Shown here: positions 3,048 through 3,482 of the stretch, piece by piece | Layout: the number at the start of each line of letters is the position of its first letter | Numbering within the stretch: the first letter of the stretch is position 1 | Assembly: GCF_002087085.1 (NCBI RefSeq) | Contig: NZ_MWQY01000005.1 | Coordinates: 1 to 64,000 of the forward strand | Direction of reading: 5' to 3' | Length of the DNA stretch: 64,000 nt | The notes under the pieces: generated by a model | What the model was told of the DNA's origin: nothing | What the model saw: the letters and a program-made list of their open reading frames with translations, nothing else | The model's database searches: none | Translations under genes and position numbers: made by a program

Positions 3048-3186
3048 GCCCAAGAAGATTCTTTCTCCTCCGCCTGGGGCGTCGGACTGGCACTTTGTCC
3101 TGTGGCCAAAGTGATTGGCTACGGCTCGAATCCTCTCGGGTCCCCGAGAAATGTCAGAGGCCCCCAAAAGGGGGCCTCAGCCGTTG
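3048..3186. repeat. ~140-bp structured element downstream of tRNA-Arg with a duplicated tRNA 3' end
   Basis: GCCCAAGAAGATTC (3048-3061) matches tRNA GCCCAAGAGGATTC (3190-3203) at 13/14; internal hairpins; CGGACTGGC at 3083-3091; inverted T-arm copy at 3123-3140. Confidence 0.7.
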
Positions 3187-3260
3187 CACGCCCAAGAGGA
3201 TTCGAACCTCTGACCCACGGCTTAGAAGGCCGTTGCTCTATCCAACTGAGCTATGGGCGC
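3187..3260 (-). tRNA. tRNA-Arg (anticodon TCT)
   Basis: Cloverleaf GCGCCCA...ACGGC-CT-TCT-AA-GCCGT...GGTTCGAATCC...TGGGCGT-G; CCA not encoded. Confidence 0.95.
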
Positions 3261-3268
3261 ATGGTATA

Positions 3269-3409
3269 CATCGGGATGAGAGGATTCTTATCCTTGCCCA
3301 TGTTCCATGAGCTGCGGACTGGCGTTTCCGATAAACGGAAACACTACGCCGAGGTTTGAATCCTCAGGTTAATCCGTTAATAACAGATCACCCTCTATCT
3401 CGAAGTTCA
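3269..3409. repeat. ~140-bp structured element downstream of tRNA-Pro with a duplicated tRNA 3' end
   Basis: Exact 19-bp CATCGGGATGAGAGGATTC at 3269-3287 and 3408-3426; CGGACTGGC at 3315-3323; hairpin GTTTCCG-ATAAA-CGGAAAC; inverted T-arm GAGGTTTGAATCCTC at 3351-3365. Confidence 0.75.
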
Positions 3410-3482
3410 TCGGGATGAGAGGATTCGAACCTCCGATCCCCTGGTCCCAAACCAGGTGCCCTAGCCACTGGGCCACATCCCG
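3410..3482 (-). tRNA. tRNA-Pro (anticodon TGG)
   Basis: CGGGATG...CCTGG-TT-TGG-GA-CCAGG...GGTTCGAATCC...CATCCCG-A. Confidence 0.95.

Follow-up and report, generated by a model that had tools for sequence, protein, structure and literature searches.

Two tRNA genes in the stretch of spirochaete DNA analyzed here (the window, positions 1 to 64,000 of contig NZ_MWQY01000005.1) are each followed by a small folded unit of a gene-less family that is tailored to tRNA 3' ends. The units have a common anatomy, in which the tRNA end is followed, often after a terminator hairpin, by an inverted arm, a core, and a copy of the tRNA tail. The arm is the reverse complement of the T-loop and the 3' strand of the T-stem of the local tRNA. 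The core is GC rich and consists of two or three covarying hairpins with conserved junctions, and the tail copy runs from T-loop position 56 or 57 to the tRNA 3' end or slightly past it. A helix of ~10 bp between arm and tail copy closes the core; the copied acceptor strand stays single-stranded. Among species of one genus, a unit is present or cleanly absent at the same tRNA. We give about even credence to the explanation that these are structured elements without genes, similar to the RtT repeats of Escherichia coli, which reside in the tRNA 3' flank on the tRNA strand and for which both mobility and release as RNA are inferred.

The two tRNA genes and both units lie on the - strand, although the preliminary description of this DNA gave its sequences on the + strand. 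Unit B is the one behind tRNA-Pro, and unit A is the one behind tRNA-Arg. Read along the - strand, the order is Pro, a 149-nt spacer, Arg, and trailer, with the following parts.

3495-3523, - strand: promoter-like site TTGACC-17-TATACT upstream of tRNA-Pro, a consensus match only
3410-3482, - strand: tRNA-Pro(tgg), first gene of the Pro-Arg pair (ARAGORN and Rfam)
3408-3426, - strand: master copy of the Pro repeat, the final 17 nt of tRNA-Pro plus 2 trailer nt
3367-3409, - strand: 43-nt spacer from the end of tRNA-Pro to the inverted arm of unit B
3349-3368, - strand: inverted arm of unit B, reverse complement of the T-loop and T-stem 3' strand of tRNA-Pro and 5' strand of the closing helix
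3324-3342, - strand: main hairpin of unit B, GTTTCCG/CGGAAAC on the + strand
3315-3323, - strand: conserved junction GCCAGUCCG of unit B, CGGACTGGC on the + strand
3296-3312, - strand: small third hairpin of unit B
3269-3287, - strand: tail copy of unit B, matching tRNA-Pro positions 57-73 and 2 further nt at 19/19; it supplies the 3' strand of the closing helix
3186/3187-3260, - strand: tRNA-Arg(tct), second gene of the pair and master copy for unit A (ARAGORN and Rfam)
3157-3178, - strand: GC-rich hairpin with a weak U-run after tRNA-Arg
3123-3140, - strand: inverted arm of unit A, reverse complement of the T-loop, the T-stem 3' strand, and the start of the acceptor strand of tRNA-Arg
3092-3112, - strand: main hairpin of unit A, ACTTTG/CAAAGT on the + strand
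3083-3091, - strand: conserved junction GCCAGUCCG of unit A, CGGACTGGC on the + strand
3048-3061, - strand: decayed tail copy of unit A, 13/14 and diverging afterwards; its counterpart in the related genome G004 is a perfect 18-nt copy

A repeat search recovered the direct repeats of their own 3' ends that had been noticed behind both tRNAs, 3269-3287 being identical to 3408-3426 (19/19, spacing 139) and 3048-3061 matching 3190-3203 (13/14, spacing 142). As had also been noticed, the repeats have the same T-loop boundary; both begin at G57. The same search placed the inverted T-arm copies at 3351-3365 versus 3419-3433 in unit B (15 nt, 93%) and at 3123-3140 versus 3191-3208 in unit A (18 nt, 89%). 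On the tRNA strand, both units thus follow the proposed plan: spacer or hairpin, arm, a unit-specific hairpin that differs in sequence between them, GCCAGUCCG, a small hairpin, AGGA(G)UAA/AAA, and the tRNA copy from G57 to the end. In unit B, the UCC of GCCAGUCCG pairs with the invariant GGA that precedes the tail copy, which itself ends 8 nt ahead of tRNA-Arg, and the stem of the main hairpin covaries with relatives and with unit A. The 9-mer CGGACTGGC is indeed identical in the two units, but it occurs dozens of times in the genome and is therefore not diagnostic alone. Against shuffled sequences, the fold of the tRNA-sense strand reaches z values of -4.2 (Pro unit) and -3.4 (Arg unit), versus -3.15 and -0.48, respectively, for the opposite strand. 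Chance is excluded as a source of the window repeats by recurrence of the same plan behind 12 of the 48 tRNA genes of this genome and in its relatives. Right after unit A lies an AbiE pair, which is absent in G004; in another relative, G026, HigBA splits a unit.

The genome (79 contigs, 97% complete) has 48 tRNA genes by ARAGORN, and within 400 nt downstream of the 12 just mentioned lies a unit or else a repeat of the respective tRNA tail. These 12 are Ala-cgc (two units in tandem), Ala-tgc, Gly-ccc, Leu-cag (two), Leu-caa, Asn, Ser-cga, Ser-tga, Cys (three short units in tandem), Val-cac, Pro-tgg, and Arg-tct, and one more unit starts contig C7, where no tRNA is visible. R1, a covariance model built from six units of the commonest type, finds nine copies in this genome at E values of 3.5e-15 or lower. 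Among 41 related genomes it matches 18, namely, G000 (the genome of the window), all six others of the family, and 11 of the 34 from other families of the class; the remaining 23 have no R1 match. Ten of the 151 genomes of an even sample of the phylum contain R1 copies, and five of these ten belong to other classes. In a pattern scan of reference genomes, R1 confirmed at least eight among the 80 loci listed, all in records titled as spirochaetes except for one labeled "bacterium". An Amycolatopsis locus from that scan, scoring 18.5 bits with R1, is probably a chance match.

The family of small gene-less elements at tRNA 3' ends that had been surmised from two loci is therefore borne out, and the covariance-model search that had been suggested did return further copies at tRNA ends. 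A tRNA (once a tmRNA) on the same strand lies upstream in 36 of the 39 R1 matches examined, and its final 17 nt recur at the end of the unit, without mismatch in 21 cases, with one mismatch in 6, and with two to seven in 9; the other three matches are all at contig ends. The unit is oriented as the tRNA in each of these 36 cases. R1 targets comprise Ala (three anticodons), Gly, Ser (three), Val, Leu (three), Arg (two), Asp, Thr, Met, Pro, and tmRNA. Altogether, units of 95-180 nt, all gene-less, occupy at least 17 different tRNAs and a tmRNA, sometimes in tandem arrays, and both decayed tails and truncated or split copies exist among them. Across the family, the arms as well as the tails match the local tRNA, so the notion of arms tailored to the host tRNA held.

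The two window units belong to a shorter subtype, R2, to which R1 with filters off gives just 3.9 and 1.5 bits. The R2 model was trained on six units, the Pro units of G000, G004, G005, and G001 and the Arg units of G000 and G004. Across the 41 related genomes, its only matches besides these six were a G019 unit behind tRNA-Arg(tcg), whose 17-nt tail copy is perfect, and a marginal orphan on contig C31. The window units are clearly related to each other and have their plan in common with R1. Beyond the plan, R2 shares with R1 only a short GCCAG junction after the main hairpin, and this resemblance suggests that the two subtypes may have a common origin. The Asn, Leu-caa, and Cys/Val units represent further sequence types with the same plan.

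Covariation supports the folded structure. In 47 distinct R1 sequences, aligned by fitting to the model in a manner that favors the named structure, 88.9% of the cells are standard pairs, versus 35-43% when the 3' partners are slid. Changes on both sides affect 34 of the 38 pairs (15-24 of 38 slid), compensated cells number 420 (48-89 slid), and none of 500 shuffles attains the observed covariation values. The eight R2 sequences, from four sites, behave similarly, with 94.8% standard pairs versus 39-49% slid and both-side changes in 10 of 22 pairs. The loops CAGGAUG and CACGAUG and the junctions GGAAG and GCCAGYGARCG are conserved in R1. Folds and covariation together support the prediction that the inverted T-arm copy can close the unit by pairing with the duplicated tRNA end. 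As for the folding strand, the 6-sequence alignments had more G-U pairs on the tRNA-sense strand (energy -48.4 versus -40.1), a hint that was withdrawn because the 47 sequences give 42 G-U/U-G and 41 A-C/C-A cells; with the two kinds of mismatch equal, the counts favor neither strand, and neither RNA nor DNA, as the folded molecule.

The junction with the tRNA is sharp on one side and loose on the other. Of 41 units entered for measurement, 33 were measurable, the tail being too decayed for anchoring in 6 and the locus lacking a tRNA in 2; in 27 of these 33 the tail copy begins at tRNA position 56 or 57. The far end of the repeat varies between -4 and +37 nt relative to the tRNA end, sometimes with a whole terminator included, so that the repeat measures 12-56 nt. 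The inverted arm is usually an exact match to positions 54 to 62-66. Mature tRNA was considered as the copied template and rejected: the copies never have CCA and often run on into the genomic trailer, which points to DNA or the primary transcript as the template.

The Pro-Arg pair is syntenic across the class, and this allows filled and empty sites to be compared. With the R2 unit, the spacer between the two genes is 149 nt in G000 and 150 nt in G004, which are 88% identical over the region, and 142 and 181 nt in G005 and G001, where the main hairpin carries compensating changes. G002 and G003, of the same genus as G000, are empty, with 10 and 7 nt between the genes, very close to the ~10 bp predicted beforehand for an empty site; the G002 spacer is equivalent to the 10 nt found after the tail copy in G000. 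Empty sites also occur in G021, G011, G015, and G030 (13, 5, 1, and 6 nt). An R1-type unit occupies the spacer in G035 (208 nt) and in G020, the latter read from adjacent coordinates alone. By the single marker PyrD, the empty G002 (89% identity) is nearer to G000 than are the filled G005 and G001 (75%), which implies at least two gains or precise losses. In G004, tRNA-Arg is followed by a terminator and then by a unit with a perfect inverted arm and, past the core, a perfect 18-nt tail copy; next comes a trailer that in the empty G002 stands directly behind the tRNA. The hairpin at 3157-3178 of the window is the counterpart of the hairpin in this trailer, which in G000 precedes the unit, whose tail copy is decayed. 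The G000 order would result from a duplication in tandem and a later deletion between tail copies.

These empty sites within a genus, together with the linkage of R1 units to tRNA tails in 36 of 39 matches, contradict the reading that the spacers are plain trailers or terminators inherited vertically, which the preliminary description had named as fatal to it; on this reading, their resemblance to tRNA ends would be accidental. A terminator hairpin does lie in or next to several units, and the arm hairpin of unit B itself scores as terminator-like. Such an origin would, however, leave unexplained the exact tail repeats of 17-19 nt, the tailored arms, the core common to many tRNAs, and the tandem arrays, and we find it scarcely credible.

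Lying inside the Pro-Arg unit, whose sole promoter-like site is upstream of tRNA-Pro, unit B is probably transcribed with the tRNAs. No promoter-like site was found between tRNA-Pro and tRNA-Arg, and no terminator-like site was scored within the 43-nt spacer 3367-3409. As we picture it, unit B would be cotranscribed with the pair, and ordinary tRNA end-processing would free it as an RNA of ~100-150 nt, like RttR behind E. coli tyrV.

The main rival to a mobile element is a host-useful RNA of the RtT type, which slow turnover and the high conservation of some units keep plausible. The units would then be immobile structured spacers or trailers of tRNA operons whose helix mimics the T-arm and 3' strand of the neighboring tRNA, with a role in maturation, enzyme buffering, or stress signaling; rare duplication alone would have spread them, and the arms would coevolve with the tRNA under selection. 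The uniform orientation (36/36), the many units that must be transcribed since they lie between tRNAs of one operon, the loops and junctions conserved across the phylum, and the annotation of E. coli RttR as a small RNA all speak for this rival, as does the strong conservation of orthologous units (99% and 86% core identity). The Gly unit, for example, is 99% identical between G000 and G002, and such conservation fits selection at the host level as well as a selfish element. Cores at different tRNAs, moreover, are at most 86% identical. On the other hand, the same site is empty in G002 and G003, close relatives that do well; only roughly one in four tRNAs of this genome carries a unit; 23 of the 41 related genomes lack an R1 match; and decayed tails and truncated or split copies are tolerated. 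Neither is G-U in excess over A-C, and it is difficult to name a function for which certain tRNAs would each require their own tailored copy and the rest would require none. We hold a host-useful RNA to be a real possibility, albeit one that we doubt.

In the mobile-element explanation that we prefer, the unit would enter at the T-loop through a break or an exchange of strands, and the tail of the target itself would thereby be duplicated. The tail copy matches the local tRNA even when the arm still matches a neighboring one. Two units of G020, behind Ser(tga) and Ser(gct), are 86% identical in their cores and have the same Ser(tga)-type arm, and yet each tail copy is that of its own tRNA. The tail copy would thus be made from, or belong to, the target, and the arm would be inherited and adjusted later. 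The inverted arm may stay matched because a folded strand, either RNA or single-stranded DNA, needs its closing helix. Recombination between the two tail copies would remove the unit and restore an intact site, and the moving enzyme would not be encoded next to the unit. Turnover appears to be slow, since no very recent jump was seen among the cores compared at different tRNAs, the best of which, neighbors in one operon, are 85-86% identical. Loss by recombination between repeats and local duplication could account for much of the pattern.

None of the enzyme families searched for in the genome points to a partner for the units. A Y1 transposase or RAYT (PF01797) has no match in this 97%-complete genome (the search was positive in 6 of 14 control genomes), so the co-occurrence with such an enzyme that had been raised for testing does not hold in this genome. 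The only reverse transcriptase is within an ordinary group II intron, and the only IS110 transposase is on contig C52. Tyrosine recombinases (PF00589) number eight, with none on the window contig (C45) and none beside any unit. This agrees with the earlier remark that no transposase or integrase for the units lies in the window.

The labels first considered for the units, REP/MITE-like or att-like, fare differently against these findings. REP/REPIN-RAYT systems and the hairpin-ended nonautonomous derivatives of IS200/IS605 are likewise small, gene-less, hairpin rich, multicopy, and intergenic, whereas the units are tied to tRNA ends in a genome without Y1/RAYT. To our knowledge, REP/REPIN and IS200/IS605 derivatives make no long target-derived repeat. 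Unlike MITEs, the units have no terminal inverted repeats, their inverted repeat being formed by an internal arm and the flanking tail copy, and their direct repeat (12-56 nt, far end -4 to +37) is not short and of fixed length. We have therefore dropped the REP/MITE-like label.

An att-like substrate fits in part. The insert is bounded by a direct repeat of the 3' part of the tRNA, but no tyrosine recombinase lies within or adjoins a unit. The att sites of islands that tyrosine integrases target to tRNA and tmRNA genes, and those of integrase-less remnants, resemble the units in a direct repeat that extends from a loop to the gene end or just beyond, in the use of tmRNA, in clean empty sites in relatives, and in nearby cassettes. 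Williams reportedly described, in 2002, a T-loop sublocation for integration in tRNA genes. One could suppose that the units are remnants of islands or prophages that targeted tRNA genes, in which loss of the interior, integrase included, brought attL and attR together, or else att-only circles moved in trans by an island integrase. The repeat from tRNA loop to 3' end, slightly past it, is the att signature given for such elements in PMC9897764, which treats tRNA fragments as att sites, and the tmRNA among the targets and the cassettes at units (AbiE after unit A and HigBA in the G026 unit) agree with this supposition. The same folded, covarying core at 17 or more tRNAs would nonetheless be unexpected for islands that decayed independently, and no integrase is near any unit of this genome. 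Units of 95-180 nt without genes and with an inverted arm matched to the tRNA are likewise foreign to att remnants. The one classical integrase island that we checked, at tRNA-Gly(tcc), has a 45-nt repeat starting in the anticodon loop and no inverted arm. An island origin is, in our judgment, quite unlikely.

The closest known counterpart is RtT (RF00391; rttR), which we take to be the 178-bp repeats of the E. coli tyrT locus. Although these repeats have been annotated in E. coli for decades, we know of no accepted origin or function for them. A preprint states the mode of action of rttR to be unknown. Rfam keeps the repeats as one family, whose model, with a gathering threshold of 45 bits, matches E. 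coli K-12 at 16 places (13 over the cut-off): at tyrT (four), proK, the lysT operon (five), the valU operon, serX (three), and the argQ operon (two), thus behind Tyr, Pro, Lys/Val, Ser, and Arg tRNAs; E. coli was the only one of the 14 control genomes with a match over the cut-off. Behind E. coli tyrV, the order is tail, trailer, the arm GGGGAAGGAT, a core with GCGCCAGCGAGAG, and a 19-nt tail copy, in tandem, and the K-12 annotation has the small RNA RttR span from just past tyrV to the end of the first tail copy. In the two K-12 copies inspected, arms and tails fit the local tRNA, and the proK copy repeats the terminator with the tail.

RtT repeats and spirochaete units agree in several respects. 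Both lie directly 3' of a tRNA on its strand, with an arm complementary to the 3' T-stem/acceptor region, a GC-rich core, small hairpins, and a GCCAGCGA-type junction. Both terminate with a duplicate of the tRNA tail that begins in the T-loop (at A58 in tyrT), and the Rfam consensus structure pairs arm with tail just as the spirochaete units close. Tandem arrays and copies behind several different tRNAs are common to them too. Applied to the tyrT locus, R1 picks the four RtT repeats in register as its four best matches, at E values of only 0.03-0.12. They differ in that no spirochaete unit scores with RF00391, in the number and sequence of the core hairpins, and in the encoded CCA, which E. 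coli copies include and spirochaete tRNAs and copies do not have. Insertion polymorphism, moreover, is demonstrated here for the spirochaete units. RF00391 had no match in the genome at E values up to 10 (positions 2800-3700 of the window included) and none on nine unit loci at E values up to 1; Rfam as a whole returned tRNAs and subthreshold noise only on the window region and the same nine loci. By analogy of plan, the spirochaete units would thus work like RtT, yet they fall outside its Rfam family.

What is new here is the RtT building plan in a multicopy, sequence-unrelated spirochaete family, with covariation, a sharp T-loop junction, and filled and empty sites; a full-text literature search returned no description of such elements outside E. 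coli. RtT is thereby shifted from a curiosity to a class open to comparative study. A bolder proposition, which we rate as rather improbable, is that enterobacterial RtT and spirochaete R1/R2 form one ancient and widespread gene-less class that homes to the T-loop of any tRNA or tmRNA gene without a dedicated transposase. Homing might possibly rely on a folded strand, arm plus tail, as a mimic of the target duplex, with a universal host enzyme performing the exchange, or else on the arm as a guide to the target T-arm, and the released RNA would be a mimic of the tRNA 3' half. If true, such a class would account for a feature of the tyrT operon that has been puzzling for 45 years and would amount to a new kind of mobile element. 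On the practical side, the partial tRNA copies and long hairpins of the units can mislead the annotation of tRNAs, islands, and terminators.

RNA runs match at most 0.07 of the sampled words; contigs from sequencing runs cover the tRNAs and, in runs whose kind is unstated, a close strain with both units. Between tRNA-Arg and tRNA-Pro, 160-162 nt are skipped in two single contigs (runs X19 and X22; 85% likeness), which probably stem from other organisms with the empty arrangement and were left uncounted.

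The tail copy that closes the structured unit behind tRNA-Arg(tct) (unit A) is directly adjoined in the window by a toxin-antitoxin pair:

1139-3047: AbiEi/AbiEii toxin-antitoxin pair, 1.9 kb
1455-2402, minus strand: AbiEii
2354-2947, minus strand: AbiEi

This pair is missing in the closest relative (G004), where its flanks (window 1018-1138 and 3048 onward) lie ~30 nt apart. At the far boundary of the AbiE segment, near 1150, there is a GGATTC...GAATCC hairpin. A related genome, G026, carries a unit of the commonest type (R1) in two parts:

L034 (extracted locus, G026) 1501-3077, minus strand: split R1 unit behind tRNA-Leu(taa)

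The inverted T-arm copy and first part of this unit adjoin the tRNA gene, whereas its final segment, which carries a perfect tail copy, is 1.3 kb away. Between them, on the opposite strand, sits a putative HigB/HigA-like pair, judged from ORF translations. Together, the split unit and the AbiE case at unit A suggest that small cassettes use the units, or their tail copies, as landing sites.

One unit resembling the shorter R2 subtype, to which unit A belongs, has no tRNA nearby in the source genome (G000):

G000 C31:11716-11811 (L074 1501-1596), 27 bits: orphan R2-like unit

Its tail-like end, AGTCCTGCCCACAGCACATCCCG, occurs a second time ~190 nt upstream and is similar to the tail of tRNA-Met(cat) on contig C8.

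Units of a third type, shorter at 62-79 nt, also occur in the source genome:

G000 C12:115611-115850 (L008): short units, tRNA-Cys locus
G000 C35:7358-7434 (L009): short unit, tRNA-Val(cac) locus

These units are built of the tRNA tail, a small terminator, CATTCCTGCAAGSNGGGCG, a hairpin and the tail once more, and are present as three tandem copies behind tRNA-Cys and a single copy behind tRNA-Val(cac). At the corresponding tRNA-Val of the congeneric genome G003, a similar stretch, ATTTGCAAGCTGG, lies downstream of an R1 unit. A further unit follows tRNA-Ala(tgc) on a 769-nt contig (C61) of the source genome; we infer that this tRNA gene sits in a ribosomal RNA operon spacer. The tRNA-Ala(tgc) unit of G005 is found in three copies with identical scores (C1, C3 and C4), presumably one per rRNA operon.

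RtT (RF00391), the closest known relative by plan, matches 16 places in E. coli K-12 (NC_000913.3); besides tyrT, these are proK, the lysT-valT operon (five), the valU operon, serX (three) and the argQ operon (two). Both copies inspected (n = 2) are tailored to the local tRNA.

Other features lie near tRNA genes of the source genome:

G000 C12:194014-195830 (L197 1515-3328), minus strand: group II intron encoding a reverse transcriptase of 479 aa
G000 C23:218251-234900: 16.5-kb integrase island
G000 C4:25718-25816 (L005 19-117), minus strand: bacterial small SRP RNA

The intron showed no connection with the units; it lies on the strand opposite to tRNA-Leu(caa), ~0.7 kb upstream of that gene. 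The island directly follows tRNA-Gly(tcc), and the 45-nt repeat that bounds it begins within the anticodon loop. The SRP RNA is directly 3' of a Ser tRNA cluster bearing two R1 units.
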